IMG/VR virus record: IMGVR_UViG_3300017963_000025
Coordinates: 1 to 64,000 of that record
Length of the DNA: 64,000 nt
DNA from: a virus
Direction: 5' to 3' (one strand)
In this document: positions 2,069-63,496 of the stretch, piece after piece
Numbering within the stretch: position 1 is the stretch's first letter
How the letters are laid out: each line of letters opens with the position of its first letter
Made by a program: the position numbers and the translations under genes
Notes under the pieces: generated by a model
The model's database searches: none
Told to the model about the DNA's origin: nothing
Seen by the model: the letters and a program-made list of their open reading frames with translations, nothing else

Positions 2069-2086
2069 TCCGCAAACGTTTGCGGA
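2069..2086. repeat. Dispersed 18-bp palindrome, copy 1
   Basis: Exact TCCGCAAACGTTTGCGGA directly after TAA and 2 nt upstream of a TTGACA. Confidence 0.97.
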
Positions 2087-2088
2087 CA

Positions 2089-2117
2089 TTGACACTTGCA
2101 CAATACGGTGTTATCCT
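2089..2117 (+). promoter_or_regulatory. Sigma70-type promoter
   Basis: TTGACA-17 nt-TATCCT with extended TG. Confidence 0.55.
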
Positions 2118-2158
2118 ATCCCCCGTTGGTTAGTCATTTCTTACACGGGGGATTTTTT

Positions 2159-2896
2159 ATGGAAGACACGGAAAAACGAAAACGGATAATCAAAGTCATG
2201 CTGAACACCACCCCGAAAAATTGGAAAACCACATTTGAAAATTTGGAGTGTTTGGATTGGGCAATCGGTATGGGTGTAATCACTGACAAGGGACGGATTA
2301 CCAAGGAGGGAAAGGCGATGCTGGCGGGTGCGAAACAGAGGGCAGACGAACTGTTACGGGGTGTCCTATTAAATGAGCGGTATGTCAAAGACGCACCTCC
2401 GAACAAATGGTATTATGGCGGTTTTACCACAAAAGGCGGAAAAACCGTAAATTGGGTACAATCCGGGGGACTGCTTCTGTTGAAGGACAAAAAAGAAATT
2501 CGGGACCGATTCAGAACGGACAATCTTCGGTTTTTGAAAGCAAAAGAACAGGATATCACCGACAAGCTAAACCGGTATTTAGCCGGGGAATGGCACCGGA
2601 CCACCCCGTTTGTTTGGCAAACGCATTTCCTAAATGAGATTAGTCTGATTTGGATGAAGAGAAACGTGCTTGTATCACCGGATGAGCAAAACGAAACCGA
2701 ACCGGATATTAATCTTATTCCGATTCAATCCGCTTACTACGACACCGTTGTCCGTATGGGTGCCGCCCATTTTGAAACACGGGATAAAAAAGAGGGAGAG
2801 AACATGCGGCTTGTTCGGGCATCAGGCAACGGGGTGTTTGCCATTATTGCCGAATACAGTATTGCCGGTCTTCCGATGCCAACAACGGGGGTGTAA
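2159..2896 (+). CDS. Hypothetical protein
   Basis: 245-aa ORF coupled to the polymerase gene. Confidence 0.6.
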   Translation: MEDTEKRKRIIKVMLNTTPKNWKTTFENLECLDWAIGMGVITDKGRITKEGKAMLAGAKQRADELLRGVLLNERYVKDAPPNKWYYGGFTTKGGKTVNWVQSGGLLLLKDKKEIRDRFRTDNLRFLKAKEQDITDKLNRYLAGEWHRTTPFVWQTHFLNEISLIWMKRNVLVSPDEQNETEPDINLIPIQSAYYDTVVRMGAAHFETRDKKEGENMRLVRASGNGVFAIIAEYSIAGLPMPTTGV

Positions 2897-2899
2897 TCA

Positions 2900-5513: not shown

Positions 5514-7283
5514 ATGGACGAAAACACAAAACGCCGCGAGGAAAAAACCAAACGACGGGCACTTACGAAAGCCCTGGTAAAGCAAACACAGAAAGAAATT
5601 TCGGCATACCGGGAAAAAAGAGACGCGGTACTCTCCCAACAGATAGAAGCCGAAGCCCCCGAATTTCCCATGGAACGAGTGGGAAACAATATTTTCCTGA
5701 CACCTCCCTATGATCCCCATGAACTTTACGCATGGGCGATACGCTGTGACATTGTGAAGGCGTGTACGGATGCCATGGTCCAAAATGTGGACGGGTTCGG
5801 ATACAAACTGGTGTATCTTGGGGACGACACCACTGTGGATGAGGATGACCCAGAAAAAGAACGTATCAAAAATATTCTGGACCAAGCGAACGAATACCAA
5901 TCATTCACGACCATCCGCAAACGTTTGCGGACGGACTTGGAGGTAATCGGATACGGCGGGATTGAGGTGGTGCGTTACACCGGGGGAGAAATTTTTCTGT
6001 ATCCGATCAAAGCTGTCAATCTGAGAATGACCCAAAAACTCGCCCCTGAAATCCCGGTAAAAATCAATATTAAGCGGGATGGAAAAATTGTAACACTGAC
6101 TGTGAACCGAAAATTCCGGAAATTCGCCCAGGTACGAAGTGATGGTAAAATACGGTATTTCAAAGAATTTGGTGATCCCCGATACCTGAATAAAACCACC
6201 GGGGAATATTTTGACACACCCATCGCACCGGAACAAAATTCCACGGAAATCTGGTTCTTTCGGCATGACTTCGGGGTCAGTGCTTACGGATGCCCACCAT
6301 GGGTCGCCGCAATACTGGATGTCATGGGTCGGTACAAGTCCAAATATATCAACATGGACCTGATGGATTCACAGGGTATCCCCCCGATGCTGATCACCGT
6401 TTCAAACGGGTCACTGACAGACGAGTCCTATGAGGAATTGCAAATCATCCTAGACGCGTTTCGGGGCTATCAGAATTTCAATCGGATTGCCTGTCTCGAA
6501 TCCGAATTTGCGGATACCAGCATTGACGGCACCTCCGGCAGTGGCAATGCAAAAATCGAATTAAAGAACATGGTGGCCTTTCGACAATCCGATCTGATGT
6601 TCAAGGGCTACCTGAAACAAACCGGGGAGGATATTCGCCACACCCGCCGCATCCCCGATCTTTATCTCGGAATATCAGAATCATATACACATGCCACTTC
6701 GAAAGCTGCCCAAGCGGTGGCCGAAGAGCAGGTGTTCATCCCGGAACGTAAAGAATTTGACGAACGGTTCCATTTGGAATTCACCATACCGGAGTTGAAT
6801 GTGCGAAATTGGAAAATGGTGTCAAAAGGCCCGCAGATTGTCGGTGCCTCCCAGATCACCCAGGGGGTAAACGCGTTCAAAGACGCGCTGACTGTAAACT
6901 CTGCCATTGATTTGGCCAACACCGCATTCGGCACTGAAATGAGCCATTTCAGAGAGGAGTGGGCAAAATACCCCATTTCCCTCGTGATGGAATGGATCAA
7001 GCTCGGCAAGATCGATATGCACAGTAAGGTGGATCAAAGTATCACGGATACGATACCGGATAACACGGAACCTCCCCCGGACATGCCGGAGGATTTGCCG
7101 GACAATCAGCAAGAATTATTGAAAGCACTATATAATATTCGGTGCCGGATGGATGATATCTTTAAAAACGATGGCGAAAATTACGCGGCGGAAGAAATGC
7201 TCCCCGACATAATCAAAAATGCCATGCGGTTTATGGCCGACGTGGGAGAGGAGTTGGCATCCTATGACTCGACCGATATTTAA
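5514..7283 (+). CDS. Portal protein, PBSX family
   Basis: LTPPYDP, NVDGFG, DLEVIG..IEVVR, YFKEFGDPR, YGCPPW motifs; TAGGAG RBS before ATG 5514. Confidence 0.88.
   Translation: MDENTKRREEKTKRRALTKALVKQTQKEISAYREKRDAVLSQQIEAEAPEFPMERVGNNIFLTPPYDPHELYAWAIRCDIVKACTDAMVQNVDGFGYKLVYLGDDTTVDEDDPEKERIKNILDQANEYQSFTTIRKRLRTDLEVIGYGGIEVVRYTGGEIFLYPIKAVNLRMTQKLAPEIPVKINIKRDGKIVTLTVNRKFRKFAQVRSDGKIRYFKEFGDPRYLNKTTGEYFDTPIAPEQNSTEIWFFRHDFGVSAYGCPPWVAAILDVMGRYKSKYINMDLMDSQGIPPMLITVSNGSLTDESYEELQIILDAFRGYQNFNRIACLESEFADTSIDGTSGSGNAKIELKNMVAFRQSDLMFKGYLKQTGEDIRHTRRIPDLYLGISESYTHATSKAAQAVAEEQVFIPERKEFDERFHLEFTIPELNVRNWKMVSKGPQIVGASQITQGVNAFKDALTVNSAIDLANTAFGTEMSHFREEWAKYPISLVMEWIKLGKIDMHSKVDQSITDTIPDNTEPPPDMPEDLPDNQQELLKALYNIRCRMDDIFKNDGENYAAEEMLPDIIKNAMRFMADVGEELASYDSTDI
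5914..5931. repeat. 18-bp palindrome, copy 2 (inside portal, IRKRLRT)
   Basis: Exact match. Confidence 0.97.
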
Positions 7284-8154
7284 AGCGGATGTAAGGACCG
7301 AACGGTGGGGTGCCACTACTATGGCATTGTTTGCAAATCTCCGCAAAATTTGGCGGGAGCATTACATCAAACCGGTGGGCCGAATTACCAACGCGTTTGA
7401 CTTCAACCCGAATACCGGACGATACAATGTGGACGAAGAGGCCATTCGAAAAAATATGGCGCAAATCCGGAACAAATCCGCCATGGTATGGAATGCGTCC
7501 GCGCCCTATGTCAAAAAAGCATTTGGGAACGCCACCAAAAAGGGACTGAAACATTTTACAGACCAACAGGCCAAAACCAAATCCGTGTTCGTGTCAAAAC
7601 TGAACCAGGCGGATTGGGACCGGTTGGTGGAAACATCGCTCACGAATCATATGGAATTATTTACCCGCGAATTTCCCGACCGAATTTTGGGTCCGGAGGT
7701 GGAGCGGTTGGTCAATCTGTTTGTCAGTCGGGCGGAAACGGATATTGCGGCAATTGCCACGGTACAGGAACGTATCCGACGACTGGACCAAATGCTGTCC
7801 GGTTATCTTTACGACCTGACCGACGTTACCGTTGGAAGGGCGTGGAACTTCGCAGGGATCAACATGGCCTATGATACCGGCGTGGTTCGCGCGATGATCG
7901 TGGCAATACTGGACGCACTGACGTGTCAGGTGTGCGTCCGGTTACATGGAAAACGGATAGACGTGGCCGCCATGTACAACCGGGCCAACGCGTTTCTGAA
8001 CGCGGACTACGCCAACGCCACCGACGTGGCCAGTGGGTGGCCGTTTCCGCGTATTGCCGACGTGGACAACGTATCCCCCCGAATTATTGAGGCAAGGGGA
8101 TACCTTCCCATGTTTCACAACAAATGCCGGTGTGACATTGTTTTTTTATGGTAA
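7264..8154 (+). CDS. Head morphogenesis protein (Mu gpF/SPP1 gp7-like)
   Basis: C-terminal DALTCQVC..LHGK and PMFHNKCRC motifs; directly downstream of portal. Confidence 0.8.
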   Translation: MTRPIFKADVRTERWGATTMALFANLRKIWREHYIKPVGRITNAFDFNPNTGRYNVDEEAIRKNMAQIRNKSAMVWNASAPYVKKAFGNATKKGLKHFTDQQAKTKSVFVSKLNQADWDRLVETSLTNHMELFTREFPDRILGPEVERLVNLFVSRAETDIAAIATVQERIRRLDQMLSGYLYDLTDVTVGRAWNFAGINMAYDTGVVRAMIVAILDALTCQVCVRLHGKRIDVAAMYNRANAFLNADYANATDVASGWPFPRIADVDNVSPRIIEARGYLPMFHNKCRCDIVFLW

Positions 8155-8155
8155 A

Positions 8156-8173
8156 TCCGCAAACGTTTGCGGA
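8156..8173. repeat. 18-bp palindrome, copy 3
   Basis: Exact match, 1 nt after TAA. Confidence 0.97.
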
Positions 8174-12043: not shown

Positions 12044-12274
12044 ATGAGTAAAGCCATTTCATATGAAGATTACCATGCATACGGATGTCCTGCATGTGAG
12101 TCAGGAAACAAAAAGGTTGCCATCCATATCCAGACACCTGTTGACGCATTGCTAATATGTTCGGAGTGCGGAATGGGTTTTATTGTGGCGTTTGACGGTG
12201 CGAAGGAAACACCAAACGGAACCGTTGTCGATCATCCGTTGAAAAAACAGACATGCTTAACGGAGTTGGGATAA
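12044..12274 (+). CDS. Zinc-ribbon hypothetical protein
   Basis: CPAC and CSEC pairs. Confidence 0.5.
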   Translation: MSKAISYEDYHAYGCPACESGNKKVAIHIQTPVDALLICSECGMGFIVAFDGAKETPNGTVVDHPLKKQTCLTELG

Positions 12275-12292
12275 TCCGCAAACGTTTGCGGA
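12275..12292. repeat. 18-bp palindrome, copy 4 (extends to 24 bp, 12272-12295)
   Basis: Exact match directly after TAA. Confidence 0.97.
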
Positions 12293-16143: not shown

Positions 16144-17119
16144 ATTTCTGAACGCATTGGGCGCGGACATGACGCGGATGCGTATTCGGGGGGACTGGAT
16201 GAACGTGCGGTGTCCGTTGGCACATATTACCCACACCAACGGGGATGCGCATCCGAGTTGCGGAATTCTGATATCCGATGACGGACCGGCAATATACCAT
16301 TGTTTCGGGTGTTCCGGGGGCAAACCGGAGTCGTTGTCGTGGATGGTCCACACGATGTGGGTTGCCACGGGACGATACCCGACAGATGCGGCAAAGATAC
16401 TGGCCAGTGAAAATTTTGTATCAGAGAGTGACGCTCCGGTATTTGATTGGGACATCCGCAAACGTTTGCGGATGACACCCCTGGATGCCGACGTGTTGAA
16501 GCAATATCCGCCATTGTCCGACAGCGTATCGTGCCTGACCGCCATGGTGGTCCGGAACTGGCTTACGGAATGCAGGGGGTTGGCTCCAAGCATAATTGAC
16601 ACGCACGGGTTGCGGTATTCCCCAGAGAATTGTACCGTGGTGTTTCCGCTGACAGATCATGCCGGGAACATTTTTGTGTTGCAAGAGCGGATGATTGGTA
16701 CGAAAAAAATGTGGACCGTAAATGAAAACACGTCCGGTGTGCATGTTGACTACCCCACAATTCGCCATGCGGGGTGTTGGATGAATCTTAAAAACGCGGA
16801 TTGGGGTCGCCCCGTGATGCTGGTGGAAAGCGGATTTGACGCGGGCCGGATTGCGTCTCTCGGGTTTGACAATGTGATTGCGTCCGGGGGTACGGGTGTT
16901 ACTCCCGCGCAAATCGGGGCGTTGGCCGGTCACACGTATATTTTGGGATATGACAATGATCGGGCAGGTCAACAGGCAATGGCAAGAATTGCCCGTATGT
17001 TGGGGAATCATACGGTGTATGTGGCGGATTGGGGCGTGGTGGGGGTTAAGGACGGTGGTGATTTGGTTAATGCGGAACAATTAAAAAAAGTTTTGACGAA
17101 TACACGCCGCATGACTTGA
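16121..17119 (+). CDS. DNA primase (zinc-binding domain plus TOPRIM)
   Basis: CPL..H...HPS, CFGC; VESGFDA, YDNDRAG, KDGGD. Confidence 0.85.
   Translation: MKKETILRFLNALGADMTRMRIRGDWMNVRCPLAHITHTNGDAHPSCGILISDDGPAIYHCFGCSGGKPESLSWMVHTMWVATGRYPTDAAKILASENFVSESDAPVFDWDIRKRLRMTPLDADVLKQYPPLSDSVSCLTAMVVRNWLTECRGLAPSIIDTHGLRYSPENCTVVFPLTDHAGNIFVLQERMIGTKKMWTVNENTSGVHVDYPTIRHAGCWMNLKNADWGRPVMLVESGFDAGRIASLGFDNVIASGGTGVTPAQIGALAGHTYILGYDNDRAGQQAMARIARMLGNHTVYVADWGVVGVKDGGDLVNAEQLKKVLTNTRRMT
16455..16472. repeat. 18-bp palindrome, copy 5 (inside primase)
   Basis: Exact match; extends to 22 bp. Confidence 0.97.
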
Positions 17120-18297: not shown

Positions 18298-19679
18298 TGA
18301 AATTCAGCGAGGCCACAGTCAGTACCCATGTGTTCGTTCCGAAGCATGAGGTAGATCCGGATTTGTTGGATGATTACGTCATCGAATCCGCATTTGAGGA
18401 TAATCGGCACGTAATCCGGACCTATGCGGAAACCGGTCGGCATATCGGATTCCCACGGAATTGTTTGCCACCGGGTTTTCGGGCAGAAAAGGTCTATGAC
18501 TTGCGTGTCACCGGCCCGAAAACCTACGGCACATTCACTTCCGAACTAAGACCGGACCAGTCCGACATTGTAAGGCGCACATTGGCAATATTACGCACCG
18601 AGGGCGGTGTGGTGATTCATGCTGATCCTGCTTACGGAAAAACCGTGTGTATTTTGAATATTCTGACCGAATTAAAGCGGCGGGCCATAGTTTTGGTACA
18701 CAAGAGGGATTTGGTATGGCAATGGGTGGAAAGAATCATACAACACACCACCATACCCCGGTCCCAGGTTGCGGTTGCGATGGACGGTGAAGTTGGTGCG
18801 TTGGACGGAAAAAATATTCTTGTCGGGTTGGTACATACTATCGGAAAAAATTGTTGGGGAGAGACACTTACGCACTGGCCGGGGGTGGTGGTGTTCGACG
18901 AAGTTCATAGCAGTGTGCCTCCGCAAACGTTTGCGGACGTGGCGGCAATGTTTCCAGCCAAATACCGAATCGGGGCTACTGCCACTCCACGGAGACAAGA
19001 CCGGATGCACCGGGTGTTTGAGCACCATATTGCAAGTTCGCGTCATCATGTCCGGGCGGTGGCTCCAACCCAAAACAAATCCGTGATCGTAATACATCGC
19101 TATTATGACCGTCATAAAATGCCGATTGAAGCGAAAAGCGTTCATGCAATTCGCGCACAGCTTTTTTATATCTTGATGAGTGACCCCGTGCGGAACCAAC
19201 TGATTGTCAACTATGTGTCATCGTTTGTGTCCGGGGGTCGCCGGGTGATTGTCGTATCAGATCGCATCTATCATTTGGCGGTGTTGGCGGCGATGACCCG
19301 GAAGAAACATCCGGACAAACAAGTCGGATTTTATACGAATCAGGTTGCGGTGCTGGACGAATACTGGACAGAGATTCGACGTACCACAAACACCAAAGCC
19401 GATCTTGATCTTACGGCCAAATATGCGGATGTGATATTCGCCACTTACAAAATGTTGGGGGAGGGGACCGATTTGGAAAATGTATCCGGAATGATTTATG
19501 CGATGCCCCGGACGGAGGTGGAGCAGTCCAAGGGTCGTATCGAGGGGCCGCGATCCGGCGGAAAAAAGCCCGTGGTAGTGGATATTTGGGACATGGTGTA
19601 CCCAACGGCCACGGGTTATGCAAAAAAGCGGATGTCGCATTATCAGTCGGTGGGTGCGTCCGTACATTACAGGGGGTAG
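18297..19679 (+). CDS. Superfamily 2 DEAD/H helicase
   Basis: AYGKT, DEVH, TATP, EGTD, QSKGRI. Confidence 0.9.
   Translation: MKFSEATVSTHVFVPKHEVDPDLLDDYVIESAFEDNRHVIRTYAETGRHIGFPRNCLPPGFRAEKVYDLRVTGPKTYGTFTSELRPDQSDIVRRTLAILRTEGGVVIHADPAYGKTVCILNILTELKRRAIVLVHKRDLVWQWVERIIQHTTIPRSQVAVAMDGEVGALDGKNILVGLVHTIGKNCWGETLTHWPGVVVFDEVHSSVPPQTFADVAAMFPAKYRIGATATPRRQDRMHRVFEHHIASSRHHVRAVAPTQNKSVIVIHRYYDRHKMPIEAKSVHAIRAQLFYILMSDPVRNQLIVNYVSSFVSGGRRVIVVSDRIYHLAVLAAMTRKKHPDKQVGFYTNQVAVLDEYWTEIRRTTNTKADLDLTAKYADVIFATYKMLGEGTDLENVSGMIYAMPRTEVEQSKGRIEGPRSGGKKPVVVDIWDMVYPTATGYAKKRMSHYQSVGASVHYRG
18920..18937. repeat. 18-bp palindrome, copy 6 (inside helicase, just after DEVH)
   Basis: Exact match. Confidence 0.97.
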
Positions 19680-19681: not shown

Positions 19682-20125
19682 ATGGCATCGTCATCGGACT
19701 ATCAAAAAGAATATTACCGGAGAAACCGGGAAGAAATTTTAAAGCAGAGAAAGAAACGATACCAGGAGGATAAGGATTATCGGGAGGGGTTGAAGACAAA
19801 GGCATTACAGAAGCACCATGCCAACAAACCCCCGAAAAAAAACAGGCTGGTGGTGAATGCGGATGGGAAAACTTTTTACACCACCGGTTACTTGTCAAAG
19901 ATGACCGGAATTAATATGATGACGATTCATTATTACATCCGGCACGGGATTATCCCGAACGCAAAAATTGTCCGTTGCGGATGGAAAATTTACACTGAGG
20001 AACAGATCGAAATTATCCGAGACGCGTTTGCGCCGTATGGCACCAAACGGAAGTCCGGTGAGGATTTGGAGCAAATCAAATTGAAAATACAAAAAGGATT
20101 CAACGCATGCCAAAAAAGAAAATAA
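19682..20125 (+). CDS. MerR-type HTH DNA-binding protein
   Basis: YTTGYLSKMTGI...TIHYY...GIIP......GWKIYTEEQI. Confidence 0.7.
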   Translation: MASSSDYQKEYYRRNREEILKQRKKRYQEDKDYREGLKTKALQKHHANKPPKKNRLVVNADGKTFYTTGYLSKMTGINMMTIHYYIRHGIIPNAKIVRCGWKIYTEEQIEIIRDAFAPYGTKRKSGEDLEQIKLKIQKGFNACQKRK

Positions 20126-21734: not shown

Positions 21735-22204
21735 GATTATTTTGCAAAGAATGCGGGGGCGTGTTATACGGCTATCCACGACATTTTCATAAGGGCATGG
21801 ATACTCTGTGCTCCCTCCGGTGTATGTGGAAGTGGGGGAAAACAAAACGAGTGGTGCCGGATATTCGTGTGCATCATTCCCAGGAATTTGCCGAATTCCG
21901 TAGCCGATTTGAGATTATGTTTGCGGAATGGCTGACCGTCAACGGATTCCCTGTGATTTACGAACAGTATTTATTCAGGCTTGGGGATCACGGATCATAT
22001 ACCCCGGATTTTTTTATCCCGGACGCGGGATTTGTGGAAGTCAAAGGCGTGTGGCATCCTGGGCAGCGTAAGAAAATGGACCGATTTATGGCGGAATATC
22101 CGGAAATTCCCATTGTATTGTTGCCGTGGCCGGTGAACATCCAACTATGTCCGCAAACGTTTGCGGACGACGGAGACGTGTCCGATGTACGCAGAATTTT
22201 ATGA
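21731..22204 (+). CDS. PD-(D/E)xK endonuclease (T7 endonuclease I-like)
   Basis: FRSRFE, YE, YTPDF, VEVKG. Confidence 0.75.
   Translation: MRLFCKECGGVLYGYPRHFHKGMDTLCSLRCMWKWGKTKRVVPDIRVHHSQEFAEFRSRFEIMFAEWLTVNGFPVIYEQYLFRLGDHGSYTPDFFIPDAGFVEVKGVWHPGQRKKMDRFMAEYPEIPIVLLPWPVNIQLCPQTFADDGDVSDVRRIL
22150..22167. repeat. 18-bp palindrome, copy 7
   Basis: Exact match in the 3' end of the endonuclease gene. Confidence 0.97.
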
Positions 22205-23639: not shown

Positions 23640-23657
23640 TCCGCAAACGTTTTCGGA
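23640..23657. repeat. 18-bp palindrome, copy 8 (1 mismatch)
   Basis: TCCGCAAACGTTTTCGGA after TGA, 7 nt upstream of a TTGACA. Confidence 0.9.
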
Positions 23658-23664: not shown

Positions 23665-23693
23665 TTGACAATTTCCCAAATAGGATGTATTAT
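23665..23693 (+). promoter_or_regulatory. Sigma70-type promoter
   Basis: TTGACA-17 nt-TATTAT. Confidence 0.7.
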
Positions 23694-23736
23694 AACAAAT
23701 GTTTTTTTTCAATAATATATTTACGGGGGAATGGGA

Positions 23737-40669: not shown

Positions 40670-40701
40670 TACTGCTATTCGCTTTTAAATTGGTATTTGG
40701 T

Positions 40702-40908: not shown

Positions 40909-41022
40909 TTGTTAATCTCCTTTTTATGATACACAGTAAAGTCGGTTTTGCCGTTCAATCGCCACGCTGTTTCATTTTTTTCCTTTTTGTTTTTCATGCT
41001 CTTGCAGTCTCTTTCGTTGTTA

Positions 41023-41214
41023 TTATAGTAAATCACATTCAGAATCGAACACGATTCTCTCATCCTCGTAGCCATAATTTTCGACCACAGTGCCGCCGTT
41101 TGTAATGCAGCATCTTTCAGCTTCCTCCTGTTCTTCCCATATCATGGCGTCAGGATATTCACTAACAAACTTATTCCCGTCAAAAAATTTTTCCTCGTAT
41201 TTTATTATAAACAT
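41023..41214 (-). CDS. Hypothetical early protein
   Basis: AAGGGG RBS; truncated paralogue at 42002-42079. Confidence 0.6.
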   Translation of the reverse strand: MFIIKYEEKFFDGNKFVSEYPDAMIWEEQEEAERCCITNGGTVVENYGYEDERIVFDSECDLL

Positions 41215-41324
41215 TTGTTTCCCCTTTCTTTTGCGTATTCTGCTTCATAATGGCATTGCGTCAAACACATATTCTTTTCGTTGCATGCCCGCCGAAGCGG
41301 GCTGGTTGCGGACGTTTGATTGTA

Positions 41325-41858: not shown

Positions 41859-41880
41859 GGCTTGGCTCCTTTTTGGTTTG

Positions 41881-41976
41881 GGTTTCTCTCGCTGTCTGGA
41901 ATATATAATAATTCCTTTTAAGGCAATTGTCAAGTATTATTTTTCATATTTTTATTTTTTTTACACGGATGTACAC
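41881..41976 (-). promoter_or_regulatory. Repeated strong early promoter (96-bp exact inverted copy of 46280-46375)
   Basis: A-tract UP element plus TTGACA-17 nt-TATTAT. Confidence 0.85.
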
Positions 41977-42001
41977 TAATGAGTACCTGTTTTTATTTTG
42001 G

Positions 42002-42079
42002 TTATTTCGTCCATTCCGGATACTCATCCGTCCATCGATTTCCGTCGAAAAATTTTTCACTGTGCTTTATTATGAACAT
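42002..42079 (-). pseudogene. 25-aa truncated paralogue of 41023-41214
   Basis: MFIIKHSEKFFDGNRWTDEYPEWTK* versus MFIIKYEEKFFDGNKFVSEYPD. Confidence 0.6.
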
Positions 42080-42119
42080 CTTTCCCTCTATTGCTTTAGT
42101 GTTTTCCCCGTTACTGATT

Positions 42120-42193
42120 AATATCAGTAATGCCTTATAAGGAAATTGTCAAGCATTATTTTCACATCGAACAAACTTTACACGGATGTACAC
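42120..42193 (-). promoter_or_regulatory. Diverged copy of the repeated promoter
   Basis: GTGTACATCCGTGTAAA box, then AAAATAATGCTTGACAATTTCCTTA. Confidence 0.65.
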
Positions 42194-42333
42194 TGTCGGA
42201 TAATACCACACCCTGGCCATGCCACTTTCGGCACGATGTGGGGCATACGTGTAACACGGAAGGCACACGGCACAGGCAATCTGCAACTGTAGTTGCAGAT
42301 ATGTGTAACGTATTGATATCACAAGGATTGTTA

Positions 42334-42351
42334 TCCGCAAACGTTTGCGGA
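42334..42351. repeat. 18-bp palindrome, copy 12
   Basis: Exact match in the non-coding region. Confidence 0.97.
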
Positions 42352-42888
42352 CATGTGGGAAGTCTGGAAACGCTATGCACAATCCGATTTGTGTGTGCGG
42401 ATACCATGCTTGTCCGATGTCCGTTGGTGCGGAACCAGGATGTGGCGGGCAGAAACAGAATCATGGTTGGCCGAGATAAAATCGTGGGGGGTCGAAATCC
42501 GGAATTAGAAATCCATACGTAAGCAAAGGAAATAACGATATACATAGTATGAGCATGAGTAATAATGCATAATCGTGGCAGGGAGACAAGCGTAACACCA
42601 GCAATACAAGCATAGCGCAGTAATAACGTAAGCATCAATGCTGTGGTCGTGGGAGTCGGGAAACTAACAGACAACAGGTAATAAGAAGAACAATAAGAAA
42701 TCGTGGGGTCGATAACAACAACTGGCAATTACACACATCCTTTACAAATTCACAGAACATATATTATATACGGAACAATAGCAACAAGCAACAGACAGTA
42801 TGTAATCACGGGATCGATCCACCATACAGCATAGCGGGAACCGACTGTATGTCGTGGAACATCTGTTTCACATTGAGCATTAAACATT

Positions 42889-42950
42889 GAAACATTTGTA
42901 AACATTTGTTGAAACATTTGTTGAAACATTTGTTGAAACATTTGTTGAAA
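42889..42950 (+). repeat. Tandem repeat, 12-bp unit AAACATTTGTTG x4 plus degenerate copies
   Basis: Directly visible. Confidence 0.9.
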
Positions 42951-43935
42951 AAAGCCTTACCGCTCAAACCTAGAGTATCAAGGGTTTACGTTAGCCAACC
43001 TAGCTTAGCCAACCTGGAAGAACATGCGAATCGTGTACAAAATAACCGAAAACAACCCAATATGATTATATTGGGTTATATTTTACACAAATGTACACGT
43101 AAAATGACGCGCTTTAGCGTGAAATCGTGCTTGCGTCATGCGTTTTAAGGCAATTGCGTCATGGATCACGATGCGAAAATCTCAGGCATACCCGGTGTTG
43201 CCAGCCCAGTGTAGTATACTTTCAATTGTGATGTCAATATGTTACGATTTATGGCAATCTTCAAGTTGACAATCTTTCAATTGCGGTATCCGTATGCGGT
43301 GGCGGGGTATTGCCCTTCCCGGAATTGACGCAATCATCCCATTTTTTCCGTATGGTTTCCGCCTGAAACCGGGAAAATCGCTTGTGTCATTTTGCGTCAT
43401 GAACTTGATCTTGGCACTAATTTTTACAATTCTCGTAACTGACTGATATAATTGCAGATCGAAAATTTCTGAGACGCAGGGAAGGTCGTCTTGCTTTCTG
43501 CCATATTTTGCTGTTTTGCGTCATAAATCGGGGGAAATCGGGGTGTTTTTTCGCATTTTTTGGCTGATTTTGCCGGATTTTCTTGCTATTTTCCCTATCT
43601 CCGCCGGTTATTTCCTTATTTTTCCATTGGAATATTGGGAATTGATCCATACCCTATTTGGTATTGCTCCTGCTTTTCACTTATTCAGTAATATCAATGG
43701 GTTACGAATTCGAGTACATGGTGAAATCCCGTTGTTTTGCGTCATATTGCGTCAAAACCCGCTACTTTTTTCAAGTTATGGCTAACTTCCAGAACGTATT
43801 GATATGATTACAAATCGAAAATTTTGAGTCTACAGGGGTTGTCGCAAAATCACCTTGTGGTAACCCGCTGTTTTGCGTCATTTTTTACCTGATTTCGGAG
43901 TGAATTGGAAACGGGAAACACGGGAGAAATGGGAA

Positions 43936-44047
43936 CCGAACATTATTCTGCCAATGACTGGTTTAACAGAACAATGTTCGGCAAATTGCATTATACATAC
44001 GCAGAATAATATTCGGTATTGTTCTTGAATTGCCGAATATTATTCTG
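43936..44047. repeat. Four 15-bp CAGAAYAATRTTCGG boxes forming two inverted pairs
   Basis: 43936(-), 43967(+), 44002(+), 44033(-). Confidence 0.8.
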
Positions 44048-44460
44048 TGCTTAGATCGCTTTCAGATAACCATCCGCTTTCATCTCCGTTATCGTACCTG
44101 ATTTTATATTTTTCCCAAATGATTGGTTTTTTAAAAGCTGGTAGCGATCTGTTCTGTATGCATATTATTGTTGCCCCCATATTTTTATTCAACCCAGAAG
44201 CCATGTGTGCCGGTGACAAAATATCATGCCAAGTTTTTTATCCTGCGACCACGATCTTAGAAGATCGTTGTCTTCCCCGATGGTATCCCCGCATCCGTCC
44301 GCGCTACAGGTAAATTTTCTGACGAAACACGGATCTGTGTGGTTGAGGGAAAAGCATCCGGAATCACAATAGTAGTGGTCAAATCGACAACACCGATAAT
44401 CCGGTGTCCTTATCCTATTATTTATATTATCACAAAAGAAGACTATTAAAAAGTTAAAAA

Positions 44461-44733
44461 TTACGCTTTCAAATGTTCTTTTATTATTTCAGCAAATTGT
44501 TCTTCAAGCTCATCAATTTCCTTTTCGATATTTAATGGGAACAATATTCTAAATGTGTGATAAATACGGCTTGGAAAGTCAAAATATCCATTATCACAAT
44601 GTTTGTCTATTTCGATATCAAATTCGTCTTCTTTCACTCCGATGTTTTCCGCAACGTTGGCGAGAACGGGATCGTCCGAAATTTCTTCCGCTGCAAAATA
44701 GCTGTAGCCCAATTTTGTGAATTCGTATCTCAT
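44461..44733 (-). CDS. Hypothetical acidic early protein
   Basis: AAGGAGGT RBS. Confidence 0.6.
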   Translation of the reverse strand: MRYEFTKLGYSYFAAEEISDDPVLANVAENIGVKEDEFDIEIDKHCDNGYFDFPSRIYHTFRILFPLNIEKEIDELEEQFAEIIKEHLKA

Positions 44734-44772
44734 GATACCTCCTTTTCTGTCAGGGTAAATCCAAGGGTGTCA

Positions 44773-44790
44773 TCCGCAAACGTTTGCGGA
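44773..44790. repeat. 18-bp palindrome, copy 13
   Basis: Exact match, intergenic. Confidence 0.97.
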
Positions 44791-44851
44791 TTTTTCTGTT
44801 GATTCGCTGAGACATTCCGCCCAGCTTGCCCGTCTGGCCATGACGGCAAAA

Positions 44852-45178
44852 TTATACTCTGCCAAACAAAATGTCAATCGGGTTAACACCGGTCATATCC
44901 TGTCTTTCCTCCAAATCTTCCTTGTCCAAGGTGATTTCATACCCTGCCAATTCATTTCTGTGAAAATCAAGGCTGTGCTGCGTGTTTCGTATGATAGATG
45001 CCTTGGTCTGGCCAATTACTCCGGGGAACAAGTGACCAAACTTTGCCACTGCTTCTTTGGCCGACATTTTTTTAACTTCGGCAAGTCTGCTTTCCAGGGT
45101 GTTGATGATTTCTCTCAATCTCAGGGTTTCTTCAAAATTTTCTATCCCGTAGATTTTTGTTTCGGTTGCGTTTGTCAT
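44852..45178 (-). CDS. Hypothetical early protein
   Basis: AAGGGGGT RBS downstream of a repeated promoter. Confidence 0.6.
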   Translation of the reverse strand: MTNATETKIYGIENFEETLRLREIINTLESRLAEVKKMSAKEAVAKFGHLFPGVIGQTKASIIRNTQHSLDFHRNELAGYEITLDKEDLEERQDMTGVNPIDILFGRV

Positions 45179-45218
45179 GTCGACCCCCTTTTTGGTTAGT
45201 GTGTTTCCCCGTTACTGA

Positions 45219-45283
45219 AATATATAATAATTCCTTTTAAGGAAATTGTCAAGCATTATTTTTCATATTTTTTATTTTTTTTA
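45219..45283 (-). promoter_or_regulatory. Repeated strong early promoter
   Basis: TTGACA (45247-45252 on minus)-17 nt-TATTAT with A-tract. Confidence 0.85.
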
Positions 45284-45374
45284 CATGATAACCGTCCAAG
45301 GCCATCCTGGCCACACGGTCAGGGGGCCATTCCGACAGAAATTCGTTCCAGCCCGCTCGAAGCGGGCTACTTTG

Positions 45375-45392
45375 TCCGCAAACGTTTGCGGG
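45375..45392. repeat. Palindrome, copy 14 (16-bp core perfect, last base G)
   Basis: TCCGCAAACGTTTGCGGG. Confidence 0.93.
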
Positions 45393-48098: not shown

Positions 48099-48376
48099 AT
48101 AACGGCAAGACCGGGGAAATTTAAAACCAAACTCGGACGAACCCAAACTGTTCACGCAAAACAGTCCCCGGTCGAACCGTGATGTCAAAAACGTATTTGT
48201 CACACGGTGAGGAGAAAAGAATGGTCGAAAACTTTTTGCTTGTCACACGAAAAGCGGATATTACATTCCTTACCATATTTTCACCATGTATTCGGATTTT
48301 TCATGTCCCCCCTACCAAACGGGGACTAAAATTATATGATATTTTGAATCGATTTTTCCTGTTGGGAGATAGCGCT

Positions 48377-49948
48377 GTGAATAAACAAAAGTATGAATTT
48401 GAGGACGAACCTATCAGGGGATATCCTGAACTCAGATGGCAGGGGAAACGTCCTTTCCGGTCCACCCAGTTTTACCCGGCTCAGTTGAAGGAAACGTACG
48501 GGAAACCTGTGGACGGATGGCTTAACAGGATATATTGGGGAGACAATCATCAAGTTATGAGTCACCTAATGAAGGAATTCAGGGGAAAAGTGCAGTTGAT
48601 TTATATAGATCCTCCGTTTAACAGCAAGGCGGAGTATAAAAAGAAAGTGATTTTGAAAGGAAAGCACCATTCGGTATTTGAAGAGAAACAATATACTGAT
48701 ATCTGGACAAACGATGATTATTTGCAGTTCATGTATGAACGATTGATATTATGCCGAGAATTGCTATCTGATCAAGGAAGCATATATATTCATTTAGGCC
48801 CAAATATAAGCCATTATGTAAAAACAATAGTCGATGGAGTTTTCGGCCCTTCAAATTTTTTAAATGAATTAATTTGGAAAAGAGCTTTCGGTCATAGTGA
48901 TTCAGGAAAATTTGGAGCTATTCATGATATAATTTTATTTTATGGAAAAAACAAACAAAGGATATGGAATAAACTTTTCCAGAAACCTGATAAAGAATAT
49001 ATTAACCGTTTCTTTGATAGTTATGACAAAGAAAGAAACGAGAGATACCAGCGGCTTAGTCTCTCGGCAGGGGGATTGACAGGAGGAGGTTATGACTATG
49101 AGTACAAGGGAGTACGAACAAACTGGCGATGTCCACTTTCCACTTTAAAAAAGCATGATAAAGAAAAAAGGCTGCATTGGCCAAAAAATGGCGGTGTACC
49201 ACGCTTGAAGAAATATGAAAGCGAATACAAAGGGATGCCTATACAAGACTTATGGCTCGACATTAGTAAGATTCATAATCAGTCTCCAGAACTATACGGT
49301 TATCCTACTCAAAAGCCAGAAGCTCTTCTCGAACGTATAATCATGGCCTCTTCCAACCCAAGTGATCTTGTCTTGGATTGTTTCATGGGGTCCGGAACAA
49401 CACAAGCCGTTGCAATGAAACTCGGTCGCCGCTTTATCGGAGCCGACATCAATCTCGGCGCTATTCAGATAACCACAAAGCGCCTCCTGTCCGTGGCCGC
49501 CAATCTGAAACAGCAAAACGCCCAGGTCCAAATCGATACCGATTCAGATGATGATTTGATCCATTACACCGGCTTTTCCGTGTACAACGTGGAAATTCTC
49601 CGGGATGAAGCAAATCTCGAATTCAAGCGGGACTCTGAGGCGAAAGTCATTGTGAGCAATGGTAAACTGGTCATTGAACAGTTTTATCCCATGAATCTTC
49701 TACAAAAACTAAGTCTGTTCGAAGAAAATGTCGAAGACTGGCGAGAACTTACGGAATCCGTCATGGTCGACTGGAATTATGACGGTGATGTATTGCGGCC
49801 GGAAATCACCGACATTCCGGGAAAGAACAAACTGGTCAAAGGCGAGTACAAAATCCCGAAAAAGTATAGCAGAATAAGAGTTAAGATAACTGATATGCTG
49901 TCGGAACACTGGGAAGGCGATGTGTCAATGGCTATGCGCGGTCAATAG
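48377..49948 (+). CDS. N6-adenine methyltransferase, type III R-M Mod-like
   Basis: WGDN..M, LIYIDPPF, YPTQKPE.LLERII, VLDCFMGSGTT. Confidence 0.88.
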   Translation: MNKQKYEFEDEPIRGYPELRWQGKRPFRSTQFYPAQLKETYGKPVDGWLNRIYWGDNHQVMSHLMKEFRGKVQLIYIDPPFNSKAEYKKKVILKGKHHSVFEEKQYTDIWTNDDYLQFMYERLILCRELLSDQGSIYIHLGPNISHYVKTIVDGVFGPSNFLNELIWKRAFGHSDSGKFGAIHDIILFYGKNKQRIWNKLFQKPDKEYINRFFDSYDKERNERYQRLSLSAGGLTGGGYDYEYKGVRTNWRCPLSTLKKHDKEKRLHWPKNGGVPRLKKYESEYKGMPIQDLWLDISKIHNQSPELYGYPTQKPEALLERIIMASSNPSDLVLDCFMGSGTTQAVAMKLGRRFIGADINLGAIQITTKRLLSVAANLKQQNAQVQIDTDSDDDLIHYTGFSVYNVEILRDEANLEFKRDSEAKVIVSNGKLVIEQFYPMNLLQKLSLFEENVEDWRELTESVMVDWNYDGDVLRPEITDIPGKNKLVKGEYKIPKKYSRIRVKITDMLSEHWEGDVSMAMRGQ

Positions 49949-50149: not shown

Positions 50150-50167
50150 TCCGCAAACGTTTGCGGA
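50150..50167. repeat. 18-bp palindrome, copy 15 (5' leader, just before the RBS)
   Basis: Exact match; extends to 22 bp. Confidence 0.97.
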
Positions 50168-50184: not shown

Positions 50185-50481
50185 ATGAATAGGTTAAAAA
50201 AAATTTATTCGGATTGTAAAGTCTTGGGTTTGAGTCAAATGATAGTGGATGGTTCCAAATGGTATGATACACAGGTGACTGATTTTAATGATATTATGAT
50301 TATTGCCGAACGAGGCTGTGATGGCCTCGGGCGCAAAATTCGCAAAATGGCATTGTCTTTACAAGACATTGATGGCTGCCAAAAACTTGTTGATTTTGAC
50401 CCGGAAGAAATTTTGCTTATTTACGGTGATCAAATAAAAAAAAGAGAGAATTCGGATACCGACGTATGGAGGGAAATATGA
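50185..50481 (+). CDS. Hypothetical protein
   Basis: AAGGAGG RBS. Confidence 0.55.
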   Translation: MNRLKKIYSDCKVLGLSQMIVDGSKWYDTQVTDFNDIMIIAERGCDGLGRKIRKMALSLQDIDGCQKLVDFDPEEILLIYGDQIKKRENSDTDVWREI

Positions 50482-51770: not shown

Positions 51771-51788
51771 TCCGCAAACGTTTGCGGA
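51771..51788. repeat. 18-bp palindrome, copy 16
   Basis: Exact match; shares the TAACCG flank with copy 10. Confidence 0.97.
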
Positions 51789-55107: not shown

Positions 55108-55125
55108 TCCGCAACCGTTTGCGGA
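55108..55125. repeat. 18-bp palindrome, copy 17 (1 mismatch)
   Basis: TCCGCAACCGTTTGCGGA. Confidence 0.9.
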
Positions 55126-56416: not shown

Positions 56417-56986
56417 ATGGGAGCTGACAGGGTGACAACAGATGAACAGGTCAGGAGAGGATTGAAAAAAATGCGGGTGGGCAATGCCTACCGGGTAAAA
56501 TTACCGGATGATTTGTCCGCTGATGAACTGAATGAATTGAATATTGTGCGCGGGGATAGTATTGTGGTTCATGTGGTGGCCCATGTGGAGTGTCAACTTG
56601 TGGTACGCTATTGGCTGAAACAACGGCGGGTATGGCGGTATTCGGTGGAATCTCCCGCACTGTTCTTGTCAGATGACATTGCATGGGTGTCGAAAGCCAC
56701 GGATATCCGACGATGTGCCAAACCAAGGTTTGGTTACGGGCCGTGCGGGTTCAGAAAAGAGGCCGAATGGCGGATATTATTGGTTATTTGGCAAATGTAT
56801 AGGGATAAAATCCCGTCCGGGAAGATTGCCGATGCGCTCAATCATGCGGGATACCGGGATAGCCGATCCAAATCCGTATCCGGGTTATGGACATCGTCCC
56901 GTGTCAATCGGATGATTCGCGCCATCAAAACGGACGGATGTTACAATGAAATCAAAACAGGAGGGAATAATAATGTGGCCGTTTAA
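56417..56986 (+). CDS. Protein with a C-terminal serine-recombinase-type DNA-binding (Recombinase) domain and no catalytic domain
   Basis: FGYG.....E....I..MY....S..IADALN..G.......W....V..MI. Confidence 0.5.
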   Translation: MGADRVTTDEQVRRGLKKMRVGNAYRVKLPDDLSADELNELNIVRGDSIVVHVVAHVECQLVVRYWLKQRRVWRYSVESPALFLSDDIAWVSKATDIRRCAKPRFGYGPCGFRKEAEWRILLVIWQMYRDKIPSGKIADALNHAGYRDSRSKSVSGLWTSSRVNRMIRAIKTDGCYNEIKTGGNNNVAV

Positions 56987-57245: not shown

Positions 57246-57566
57246 ATGGAAAAGCAAAGGAATATTATCGCTGTCGGCAAAATCGCAGATCAGATGGGAG
57301 TATCCGTTCGGACAGTCCGTGGATGGACGGATATACTGATTAAAAACGGACACGCACGGAGAATCGGAGGGGGTGCGGTTCGTGGCCGCTATATCTATTA
57401 TAGTACGTCAATTCCGTTCCTTCGGATACGAAACGCAATACCAATCACCGTTCGCGAAAATGCCACTTACGTAAACGGGCGTGGTTGGTATGTCGGTGAG
57501 GAAAAAATAGGAAAAAATATGAATGATGCCTATGACTACCTGATTCGGGAGGGTATCGTTCAATAA
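57246..57566 (+). CDS. HTH DNA-binding protein
   Basis: IADQMGVSVRTVRGW; AAGGAGG RBS. Confidence 0.65.
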   Translation: MEKQRNIIAVGKIADQMGVSVRTVRGWTDILIKNGHARRIGGGAVRGRYIYYSTSIPFLRIRNAIPITVRENATYVNGRGWYVGEEKIGKNMNDAYDYLIREGIVQ

Positions 57567-58852: not shown

Positions 58853-58870
58853 ACCGCAAACGTTTGCGGA
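58853..58870. repeat. Palindrome, copy 18 (16-bp core perfect, first base A)
   Basis: ACCGCAAACGTTTGCGGA. Confidence 0.93.
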
Positions 58871-61644: not shown

Positions 61645-61673
61645 CGGTCCCAAACACCGTCGGGTTTCCCAGT

Positions 61674-61714
61674 AAAACCGTGCATTTGTGCCTGTCACAT
61701 TGCACGGTTTTTTT
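61674..61714 (+). terminator. Rho-independent terminator
   Basis: AAAACCGTGCA...TGCACGGTTTT plus T tract. Confidence 0.7.
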
Positions 61715-61916
61715 ATTTACATATTTGAAATTCGTATAATTCTCACACAATGTGATAGCACATATCCCCCCAATTTTCCCCCAAATTTATTTAATTTGTC
61801 TAACACTCCGTATTTCCTATAAAATTCTATCACCTTCCGTCGCTCAGTTTGAAATGAGTTGACAAAGTATTGTATATGTCAATTGATACTATTGATATTT
61901 TCGATACGAGTCGGAG

Positions 61917-62498
61917 GTGGACGTGATTAAAAATTACCGATTGAAATCCGAAGAAAAACGGTTGGTCGTTTCCGAGGTGTATGTTCCCGGCGATGTGGAT
62001 TTGCAGGGGGATATGATGAGCGTTGAACAAGTGGAAAAAATGGCCTTCGAATTTATGAAAAACCAGCGCACCGGCAATGTGGACGTGAATCATGACTTCA
62101 CCCCATCCGGTGCGTTTGTTGTTGAATCATGGATTGCCCGCCCCAACGATCCGGACGGGTTCAGGGAAGGGGCATGGGCCGTAACAATCCATATTCCGGA
62201 TGACACCCTGTGGGCCAAGGTAAAATCCGGCGACCTGAATGCCCTTTCCATGGCTGGTAAGACCAAAACCGAATCCGGAAAACAGGTGGTGTCCCTCATT
62301 ACCGGGCTGGACGGATTTACCGAAAAATCCGCCTGTCCGGGGTTACCAGAACATCGGCATCCGGTCAGTGTGGCATGGAAGGACGGCGAAATCGGTGGAA
62401 AAACCGAAATCGCGTTTGATCACGACCACGACATCATTTCACTATCCGCCACCGGGGAAACACTCGGACATGCCCACCGGTTGGTGGTGGAGGATTAG
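61917..62498 (+). CDS. XkdF-like prohead serine protease
   Basis: V..EVYVP...D.QGD, A.EFM, DVNHD, VVESWIA, GAW, W.KVKSG.L.A.S. Confidence 0.85.
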   Translation: MDVIKNYRLKSEEKRLVVSEVYVPGDVDLQGDMMSVEQVEKMAFEFMKNQRTGNVDVNHDFTPSGAFVVESWIARPNDPDGFREGAWAVTIHIPDDTLWAKVKSGDLNALSMAGKTKTESGKQVVSLITGLDGFTEKSACPGLPEHRHPVSVAWKDGEIGGKTEIAFDHDHDIISLSATGETLGHAHRLVVED

Positions 62499-62500
62499 CC

Positions 62501-63478
62501 ATGCCAGTCAGAGCGTCCAAAATACAAAAAGAGGAAGATGTGACTATGTTGGCAGACATGGACGTGCGATACATTTCTTTGGTGCCGCACGGTGCGAACG
62601 GTCGCAGTTTCCGCGTTGTCAAAAAATACGAAAAGGAGTCATTGACTATGAAATCAATTCACCGAATTATTTCTCATGGGAAAACACCCTATGCGGATAT
62701 TGTTAAAAACAATCCGTGGCTGCAATCCCTTGGGGGGGATGTCGTAAAAACGGATAATGGGTGGTACGTCGAGCATTTGCCACAAGACCAGTTTGCGGAA
62801 AAATCCTGGCAGATTCAAAAAATCACGGAGGATGTGTTTATCCTGTCCGGTGAACTCACCACGGACAGGGCGGATGCAGTGATCCCGCCGGACACTACGA
62901 AATCCATTGGCGTGGCCGCCATGGATGCCCAGGTAAAAACAGGGGAGACGAAAAAAAGCGAACTCACCAGACCGTTCGGGGAGATGGTCGGAACGGAAAC
63001 TGACGCGTTGCTCGGCGTGGTATTTGGCGCACTGAAGCAAACGGCGGGGAACGGGAAAAGCCGAAAGAAAACCGTGCTGAACGCGATTGATGCCTATCGG
63101 GAATTCATGGATTCCGGATTGGACATGATCGGTGCGGAGGCATTGGAATTGTCCTACCCGGCCACACCGGCCCCGGAAGACACTTCGGATGTTGTGCAAA
63201 CGGAATTTGTTGAAATCACCAACCCCACGGATGACGTGGTGAAGCTGGTGGAAACCCTGAAAGGCGCGGGGGTATTCCCCAAACTACCGGAAGAAAATCC
63301 GGAGGTGGCCGAACTGAAAACCACGATTGCCGAACTGACGGAAAGGGTGAAAAATTTGTCTGGGCAACCCACTGCGATATCGGCATCTGTCGAGGATGAC
63401 GATGTAACAGCAGGCACGTCCGCAACCACAACCGAACCGGACCCGGATGAAAAACTTTTCAGTGGGGTACTGGTTTAA
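62501..63478 (+). CDS. Head maturation/scaffold protein
   Basis: L.D.DV..ISLV..GAN...F..VK, acidic coiled-coil tail; directly upstream of the capsid gene. Confidence 0.6.
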   Translation: MPVRASKIQKEEDVTMLADMDVRYISLVPHGANGRSFRVVKKYEKESLTMKSIHRIISHGKTPYADIVKNNPWLQSLGGDVVKTDNGWYVEHLPQDQFAEKSWQIQKITEDVFILSGELTTDRADAVIPPDTTKSIGVAAMDAQVKTGETKKSELTRPFGEMVGTETDALLGVVFGALKQTAGNGKSRKKTVLNAIDAYREFMDSGLDMIGAEALELSYPATPAPEDTSDVVQTEFVEITNPTDDVVKLVETLKGAGVFPKLPEENPEVAELKTTIAELTERVKNLSGQPTAISASVEDDDVTAGTSATTTEPDPDEKLFSGVLV

Positions 63479-63496
63479 TCCGCAAACGTTTGCGGA
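63479..63496. repeat. 18-bp palindrome, copy 19
   Basis: Exact match directly after TAA, upstream of the capsid RBS. Confidence 0.97.

Follow-up and report, generated by a model that had tools for sequence, protein, structure and literature searches.

What keeps a perfect 18-bp palindrome, TCCGCAAACGTTTGCGGA, in place along the genome of a phage, and what reads it there? The question is raised by the IMG/VR virus record IMGVR_UViG_3300017963_000025 (hereafter G000), which spans 85,381 bp and carries a 123-bp terminal direct repeat; bases 1 to 64,000 of this record constitute the window, that is, the whole stretch of DNA analysed. Pattern search of the window recovered 15 exact copies of the palindrome, starting at positions 2069, 5914, 8156, 12275, 16455, 18920, 22150, 28148, 32511, 40609, 42334, 44773, 50150, 51771 and 63479, along with four copies that differ at one position, starting at 23640, 45375, 55108 and 58853, and no others at up to two mismatches. 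A preliminary description of this DNA had listed all these coordinates and had judged the recurrence of the 18-mer to be beyond chance; both statements hold, with dinucleotide shuffles of the window giving 0.01 expected matches and never more than one. Outside the window, the same record contains three further exact copies (66638, 74403 and 80234), bringing the count for the full genome to 22 in 85,381 bp, or one copy per 3.9 kb, at a genome guanine-plus-cytosine (GC) content of 47.6%. The feature in question is, then, a dyad array, with tens of copies of one 14–18-bp dyad site distributed genome-wide. The array is conserved in relatives, its copies are evenly spaced, and those within genes originated in situ. 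Our preferred reading, to which we give about an even chance of being correct, is that of a lineage-wide dyad array kept at approximately one copy every 4 kb, in which the sites dock a protein dimer, the best candidate for this binder being the product of the gene at 25387–26349.

In this phage, the palindrome has the design CCGCAA-ACGT-TTGCGG. The preliminary description also held that the flanks extend the consensus, and indeed the base before the copy is a purine in 21 of 22 cases and the base after it a pyrimidine in 19 of 22, yielding the 20-bp site RTCCGCAAACGTTTGCGGAY. The variant copies carry G14T, A18G, A8C and T1A, each a single change that is not compensated by a change in the partner position. 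We infer that, at each copy, a dimer of a protein encoded by the phage docks on double-stranded DNA; both the assignment of that protein and the effect of its binding, considered below, are put forward on the same terms. The 123-bp exact direct repeat at the ends of the record could represent either true terminal redundancy or the assembly overlap of a circularly permuted genome.

Close relatives of this phage are lacking in the phage and IMG/VR collections: a 20-kb megablast query had no match among 50,697 phage records, and a DNA polymerase search of IMG/VR returned remote matches only. Near-identical DNA was seen in one sediment and one seawater metagenome run. Relatives were therefore found with a profile of the helicase family, which retrieved 24 IMG/VR loci with helicases 24–38% identical, and the most repeated words in these loci proved to be palindromes built alike. 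Even at this low level of helicase identity, the phages carry 9 to 35 copies of the design TGCAA-N4-TTGCA, the core of the site across the lineage. When GCAA-N4-TTGC was counted over whole records, with 0–2 occurrences of the reversed control pattern, there were 24 copies in G002 (98 kb; typically GCAAGCG[C/A]TTGC), 18 in G003 (98 kb; TTTGCAAACGTTTGCAAA), 18 in G004 (100 kb; again GCAAGCG[C/A]TTGC), 16 in G005 (88 kb; GCAATCAATTGC) and 15 in G006 (60 kb; GCAAGCGATTGC). A cultured Stenotrophomonas phage, DLP3, has 24 exact copies of TGCAATCAATTGCA and 31 of TGCAA-N4-TTGCA, and the latter pattern occurs 22 times in G007, a record that is 74% complete, 17 times in Rhizobium phage RHph_TM16 and 9 times in Rhodobacter phage RcZahn (controls 0); Vibrio phage SIO-2 contains three strict copies as well as degenerate forms (control 0). 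The core design is common to G002–G007, DLP3, RHph_TM16 and RcZahn, so that the count in related phages for which the preliminary description had called reveals the same genome-wide design in distant relatives. The centres differ while the arms are kept: the centre is TCAA in DLP3, G005, G007 and RcZahn, and CATA in RHph_TM16. The papers describing DLP3 and the Rhodobacter phage do not mention the motif.

The kinship extends to gene order, which this phage shares with DLP3 in three segments, namely, PolA, portal and the genes that follow; DnaB, primase, superfamily 2 (SF2) helicase, a small regulator, RecA-like and RuvC; and ParB-like, TerS and TerL. In G000, an old site of the whole lineage takes the form of a local allele whose arms are CCGCAA in place of TGCAA; a 14-bp array of TGCAACWWGTTGCA in another phage clearly belongs to the same lineage. 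Two of the helicase homologues, P0028 and P0032, contain inteins with Hint and homing-endonuclease domains.

The placement of the copies is as telling as their number. The coefficient of variation (CV) of the gaps is 0.35–0.59 in all 7 genomes tested, against about 0.93 for random placement; in simulations, the evenness is significant in this phage (CV 0.50, P = 5e-4) and in five other genomes (P <= 0.025), whereas for G002 it is judged from the whole-record CV of 0.50, the simulation being valid for the other six genomes. In most genomes, the sites are enriched 2–5 fold in intergenic DNA, with about half of them lying within genes, and most of the in-gene sites across the lineage use the frame xxG-CAA-xxx-xTT-GCx. 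Site positions are only partly conserved among relatives; in the helicase gene, for instance, the site falls at different codons in G000, in G003 and G004, and in G006, and there is none in DLP3. Nor is the orientation of asymmetric centres consistent with respect to transcription, G005 and DLP3 being biased in opposite directions. Taken together, the spacing, location, turnover and orientation of the sites argue for a DNA-level function that needs sites along the whole chromosome rather than for gene-by-gene control, and the even spacing in particular suggests a task that concerns the entire genome, for example, the loading, marking or organisation of the chromosome, rather than control of individual promoters. 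The view that the motif is a site in double-stranded DNA for a symmetric protein agrees with this behaviour, which differs from that of terminators, mobile inserts and repeats copied from a host.

Within G000, transcription is nearly all rightward, with the exception of a block at approximately 40–46 kb, and at least 12 of the 22 copies are intergenic, 6 are clearly coding and only 2–3 adjoin promoter-like sites. Many copies start 0–4 nt past a stop codon, in the short gap before the next ribosome-binding site. The copy at 2069–2086 begins 0 nt past a stop codon, and a promoter-like site, TTGACA-17-TATCCT (2089–2117), begins 2 nt downstream of it. The one-mismatch copy at 23640–23657 likewise lies 1 nt past a stop codon, 7 nt ahead of a promoter-like -35 element; this second promoter-like site, TTGACA-17-TATTAT, read from the sequence at about 23665–23693, heads an operon of genes for an AAA-ATPase, the 25387 and 26353 products, the ParB-like protein and terminase. 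These two copies sit 2–7 nt upstream of good TTGACA-17-TATxxT promoter-like sites, and the other copies are far from any. Further copies just past stops include those at 8156–8173 (1 nt past the stop of the MuF-like gene 7219–8154), 12275–12292 (0 nt past that of the open reading frame (ORF) 12044–12274), 32511–32528 (3 nt), 51771–51788 (3 nt, ahead of the ribosome-binding site of the next ORF) and 63479–63496 (0 nt, and 33 nt ahead of the major capsid gene), as well as 66638, 74403 and 80234; the one-mismatch copy at 58853–58870 lies 10 nt past a stop codon. The exact copy at 50150–50167 is intergenic, immediately ahead of the ribosome-binding site of ORF 50185–50481; the one-mismatch copies at 55108–55125 and at 45375–45392 are intergenic as well, the latter with a TTGACA hexamer 6 nt downstream. 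The copy at 44773–44790 lies between minus-strand ORFs and is followed by a T run, and it is uncertain whether the one at 42334–42351, within the block of minus-strand genes, is coding. The region 40609–45392, with 4 copies in 5 kb, coincides with the only minus-strand block of small genes and is denser than elsewhere; it may be a regulatory region, and the four small ORFs tested in it lack Pfam matches.

The six coding copies use only two frames, read as PQTFAD in four cases and as IRKRLR in two. The latter reading is found in the portal-like gene (5914–5931) and in the primase gene (16455–16472), and the former in the SF2 helicase gene (18920–18937, where the copy encodes PPQTFAD), at the 3′ end of the gene for the RuvC-like resolvase (22150–22167), within the final 13 codons of the gene for the ParB-like protein (28148–28165) and at the 3′ end of ORF 39815–40669 (40609–40626). 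As the preliminary description had noted, the copies cover regions of every kind: replication, packaging, structural and small-gene regions are all hit. In the helicase, PPQTFAD matches the family-wide motif SVPPxTFAPV column for column (14 homologues, 33–48% identity), so that this copy was written into pre-existing codons rather than inserted. Elsewhere in IMG/VR, the exact 18-mer has two single-copy matches, at least one of them within coding sequence. On IMG/VR contig 3300034686_000070 (L005, 1007–1024), one exact 18-mer lies in an open frame and encodes NPQTFADLGF; hence, the preferred frame of the palindrome gives an ordinary peptide.

Which protein could read such a site? The gene at 25387–26349 (plus strand) encodes a protein of 320 aa for which a helical core with the fold of the ParB/Spo0J/Noc DNA-binding domain is predicted at residues ~13–146, followed by a linker rich in K and E and, at the C-terminus, a conserved peptide; the ParB N-terminal domain is lacking. 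The structural model has a predicted local distance difference test (pLDDT) score above 90 over residues ~20–140 and aligns best to the DNA-binding domains of chromosomal ParB and Noc. This family, which comprises 5,684 cluster representatives at E <= 0.001 and has 888 members at E <= 1e-30, was recovered from all of the genomes examined that carry the motif, SIO-2, RcZahn, RHph_TM16 and G007 among them, and was not found in the motif-less Arthrobacter phage KellEzio. In G000, G003, G004 and DLP3, a site lies 74–153 nt upstream of the operon or gene encoding the family member. Furthermore, this phage alone has C for T in the site arms, and it alone has SRKSE for YRKAM in the putative recognition helix. 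The Foldseek E-values of the model are not significant, but ParB and Noc DNA-binding domains recur in the list; covariation of the GW[S/T/A]K residues of the family with the site centre is only partial; and longer homologues, with about 170 extra N-terminal residues, have no Pfam ParB_N domain and so offer no Rosetta-stone support from domain fusion. The family has no Pfam match, and its sequence profile against the PDB also came back empty. The C-terminus consists of the long, low-complexity K/E-rich linker and an acidic-hydrophobic peptide (D-I/L-D-x-x-L-G-L-D in relatives), which in its sequence looks like a partner-docking tail. One homologue, P0090, carries an intein with Hint and LAGLIDADG domains. 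On balance, we rank the 25387–26349 product first as the best candidate binder, possibly acting with the protein encoded at 27234–28178.

The latter (plus strand) is a ParB/Srx-type protein in which GEHR stands in place of the GERR box of ParB, and it is a possible partner of the 25387–26349 product. It matches phrog_26387 at 3e-56, its homologues carry PF02195, and ParB, Noc and KorB top its Foldseek matches at ~1e-7, the fold being like that of a C-terminally truncated ParB, Noc or KorB. Compared with all homologues, it has an insertion of ~25 residues at residues ~75–100, which is probably why Pfam PF02195 misses it. The counterparts of the ParB nucleotide-binding boxes, GEHR and N-x-x-R, are retained. 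A site lies at the 3′ end of the ParB-like gene in 3 of 6 genomes. The preliminary description had proposed this very protein among the candidate binders. However, it has an acidic helix where ParB reads DNA, and its subfamily occurs also in KellEzio, which has no such array. The interpretation of the motif as a protein site of the ParB type is partly supported; the best candidate, 25387–26349, was absent from the proteins then named.

Among the other proteins on that list, the helix-turn-helix (HTH) candidates at 57246 and 35440 and the Recombinase-domain protein at 56417 have no homologues in the relatives with the motif design and are poor candidates. More broadly, the ORFs of the interval 31.3–61.9 kb were set aside, since none has homologues in more than two relatives. 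In a Pfam scan of ten candidate-regulator ORFs, 35440–35778 and the minus-strand 41325–41933, 42162–42728 and 44461–44733 had no match, and 57246–57566 and 56417–56986 had sub-threshold matches only. Searches of the genome for Y1 transposase (PF01797), tyrosine integrase, LacI HTH (PF00356) and HTH_3 (Cro/CI) gave no match. The gene at 38780–39517 (plus strand) encodes a Mom-family protein (PF25680, E 3.7e-46), which suggests adenine hypermodification of the phage DNA, and a DNA methyltransferase of 575 aa is encoded at 48221–49948.

Under the preferred reading, selection would maintain about one copy per 4 kb around the genome, with copies placed in short post-stop gaps where possible and otherwise written in-frame as harmless residues. 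A dimer of the 25387–26349 product, a stand-alone DNA-binding domain of the ParB/Noc type, would dock on each palindrome and might recruit or load the adjacent 27234–28178 protein, of the ParB/Srx nucleotide-binding type, such that the pair would resemble a ParB split in two. Both would be expressed from the operon whose promoter-like site abuts a palindrome copy and whose first gene encodes the AAA-type ATPase (23731–25368, plus strand), and the copy at 23640 could provide for autoregulation. With sites ~4 kb apart, a factor that slides along or bridges the DNA could cover the entire genome. The purpose might be silencing or maintenance of an extrachromosomal prophage, organisation of the chromosome for recombination-dependent replication or packaging, or protection from host nucleases. 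The first of these is an option in view of reports that DLP5 is maintained as a phagemid and that DLP3 establishes stable lysogens (PMC5834331, PMC7326821). A bolder generalisation, which we offer tentatively and regard as rather less probable than the preferred reading, is that the members of a large, widespread group of tailed phages of 60–100 kb, with hosts including Stenotrophomonas, Rhizobium, Rhodobacter, Vibrio and unknown hosts from marine sediments, use ParA-less, two-gene ‘split ParB’ loading on a ~4-kb palindrome lattice to coat, silence, protect or organise their chromosome. If true, this would amount to a virus-wide use of ParB-type clamps that has not been described for phages.

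The main rival candidate is the MerR-type winged-helix protein encoded at 19682–20125 (plus strand), next to the helicase gene, a dimer of which would bind the palindromes as a global regulator of transcription or of replication and recombination; we consider this unlikely. MerR proteins are dimers that act on palindromes, and this one matches MerR_1 at 3e-6, above the Pfam cut-off, while the profile of its family matches the solved DNA-binding domains of MerR and CadR at 7.6e-7, and the SIO-2 counterpart reaches an hhalign probability of 98.9%. In this phage, the protein has TIH and GWK for the conserved TIR and GWR of the helix and wing, which could fit the altered arms. A word-index search for MerR-like proteins returned only the 19682–20125 protein itself. 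The gene keeps its spot after the helicase in G000, G002–G006 and DLP3, but it was undetected in the incomplete record G007 and in RcZahn, which have 22 and 9 sites, respectively; RHph_TM16, with its 17 sites, shows just a weak partial match elsewhere in the genome, and in both RcZahn and RHph_TM16 the gene after the helicase is unrelated to the MerR type. Moreover, the family is poorly conserved (22–35% identity), in contrast to the highly conserved core of the site, and the protein is devoid of the long coiled-coil of classical MerR dimers.

Still less probable, in our assessment, is a role of the palindrome as an RNA or single-stranded DNA hairpin, such as an mRNA stabiliser between cistrons, a processing site or a pause site. 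The abundance of copies in short intergenic gaps, many 0–4 nt past a stop, would fit an RNA hairpin, and the predicted folding energies range from -9.5 to -11.1 kcal/mol (z-scores from -2.4 to -3.7). Yet the four variants disrupt the pairing and none compensates, the loop is as invariant as the stem, the stem conserved in relatives is only 5 bp long, about half of the copies are in genes, and a perfect palindrome is strandless; the inconsistent orientation of asymmetric centres, opposite in G005 and DLP3, points in the same direction. As for termination, none of the 6 copies in 1–20 kb scored as terminator-like. The preliminary description was nearly right in stating that there is no T tract: this is the case for 20 of the 22 copies, and a T run follows the remaining two, 23640 and 44773.

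We deem it very improbable that the sites are operators for a host repressor of the LacI/PurR type, sensing the purine or sugar state or titrating the repressor. Operators of the LacI family typically have a CG step at their centre. The core GCAAACGTTTGC is the Escherichia coli PurR box and is found also in a paper on the LacI-family MalR (PMC3159470, PMC3739930, PMC4451989); a full-text literature search for core strings led to such PurR/LacI-family operator papers and to incidental matches, and to no phage paper. However, the phage encodes no LacI-type HTH, relatives that infect very different hosts keep the arms and change the centre, in some cases losing the CG step (TCAA, CATA), and neither even spacing nor in-gene writing is expected of a metabolic regulon.

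There remains the 18-mer outside the phage. In genome and metagenome collections, the exact 18-mer occurs in single copies, save for contigs of one Spirochaetota metagenome-assembled genome (MAG), JTS-AC98 (G001; L012, L020, L024, L037 and 10 further loci), with 14 exact occurrences and 63 when up to two mismatches are allowed. There, it is the core of a longer, 30-bp palindrome, a perfect GATAGG-core-CCTATC, which has compensatory arm variants, such as CCCGCAAACGTTTGCGGG and TCCGCAAGCGCTTGCGGA, and occurs once per 67 kb of a 4.2-Mb genome, in DNA of ~57% GC; judging by its sequence, this element looks like a hairpin family of the repetitive extragenic palindromic (REP) type. The flanks of the phage copies differ from this longer element, and the shared 18-mer is treated as a coincidence between two palindrome families. 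The check for a host repeat, on which the preliminary description had placed weight, finds only this MAG with multiple copies, and of a different element; as a source of the repeat or as evidence of the host, the MAG was rejected on the longer palindrome, density, GC content and flanks. A selfish or passively acquired repeat, that is, a REP-like palindrome spread by a transposase or copied from a host, is hardly credible, given that no variant is compensatory, no Y1 or REP-associated tyrosine transposase (RAYT; PF01797) is encoded, the helicase copy is not an insertion, the relatives have their own versions and the sites are over-dispersed. Also rejected were the sigma-54 promoter and integration host factor consensus sequences, compared by eye and mismatched at key bases, and T5-type site-specific nicking, in view of the perfect palindrome.

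Several of our findings go beyond what has been recorded for arrays of this kind: the TGCAA-N4-TTGCA design persists among phages that infect very different hosts and retain almost no other sequence similarity, the evenness of the spacing is actively maintained, conserved protein motifs have copies written into them, and there is a concrete candidate, a DNA-binding domain of the ParB type encoded beside a ParB/Srx protein. Because cultured members of the lineage exist (DLP3, DLP5, RHph_TM16 and RcZahn), the function of the arrays is directly testable. If clamps of the ParB type tile phage genomes, this bears on chromosome organisation, on the silencing of prophage-plasmids and on the evasion of defence.

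How, then, does the array compare with known systems? The stoperators of phage L5 and the conserved inverted repeats of phiC31 are likewise present as many copies of a short site, often in intergenic gaps, and are bound by phage regulators. Stoperators, however, as summarised in PMC4351075, are asymmetric, follow the direction of transcription and serve as binding sites of the prophage repressor, whereas here the site is a perfect palindrome, half of the sites are in genes, and neither HTH_3 nor a tyrosine integrase was found. The comparison with parS and with the Noc-binding site (NBS), which the preliminary description had drawn, proved apt, given the genome-wide design kept in distant relatives and the over-even spacing. 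Those sites, too, are palindromes, of 14–16 bp, read by a dimeric DNA-binding domain of the ParB type. Such sites are tolerated within genes, including, in Bacillus subtilis, the 3′ end of parB itself. By contrast, parS sites are few and clustered near the origin, whereas here 22 sites of unrelated sequence evenly tile the genome. Classical ParABS partitioning fails on two tested features: the sites are dispersed, and ParA is lacking, with PF01656 and PF13614 unmatched in six frames of the complete genome and controls positive.

Two systems come closer. KorB, of the ParB family, is a sliding clamp dependent on CTP (cytidine triphosphate); its HTH domain reads the OB palindrome, where the clamp loads before exerting its effect on distant positions (PMC13768133, PMC13584720). 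The twelve OB palindromes are spread at about every 5 kb on the ~60-kb IncP plasmid RK2, some at promoters and others far from them, and in model-based comparison KorB is among the best fold matches of 27234–28178. The differences are that KorB is a single polypeptide with a working HTH and with KorA, TrbA and IncC as partners, whereas here the DNA-binding-like protein and the Srx-type, putatively nucleotide-binding protein are the products of separate genes, and that no ATPase of the ParA/IncC type is encoded; CTP binding, clamping and repression are carried over by analogy only. In Cluster O mycobacteriophages, of which Corndog is one, a 17-bp dyad repeat, TGTTCGGNNNCCGAACA, has been described (PMC4351075, PMC6439249), and in Corndog it is present in 34 copies, roughly half of which fall within ORFs or close to them; their orientation carries no meaning, and a dimeric binder was predicted (PMC4351075). 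Genome-wide dyad repeats of phages have thus been on record since at least 2015, with neither a binder nor a function, and to call the present array undescribed, as the preliminary description did, was too strong. The likeness is extensive: dozens of copies over a 70-kb phage genome, invariant arms around a variable centre, copies between genes and many within them, orientation unlinked to transcription, and most copies away from promoters. The sequence and geometry differ, 7-3-7 in Cluster O against 5/7-4-5/7 here, and the lineages and hosts are unrelated; what is added here is the persistence of the design in very distant relatives, a statistical test of evenness and a named candidate that resembles the DNA-binding domain of ParB. 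The dyad array of this phage is of a known but unexplained kind, for which the Cluster O repeat is the closest phenomenon and KorB-OB the closest mechanism.

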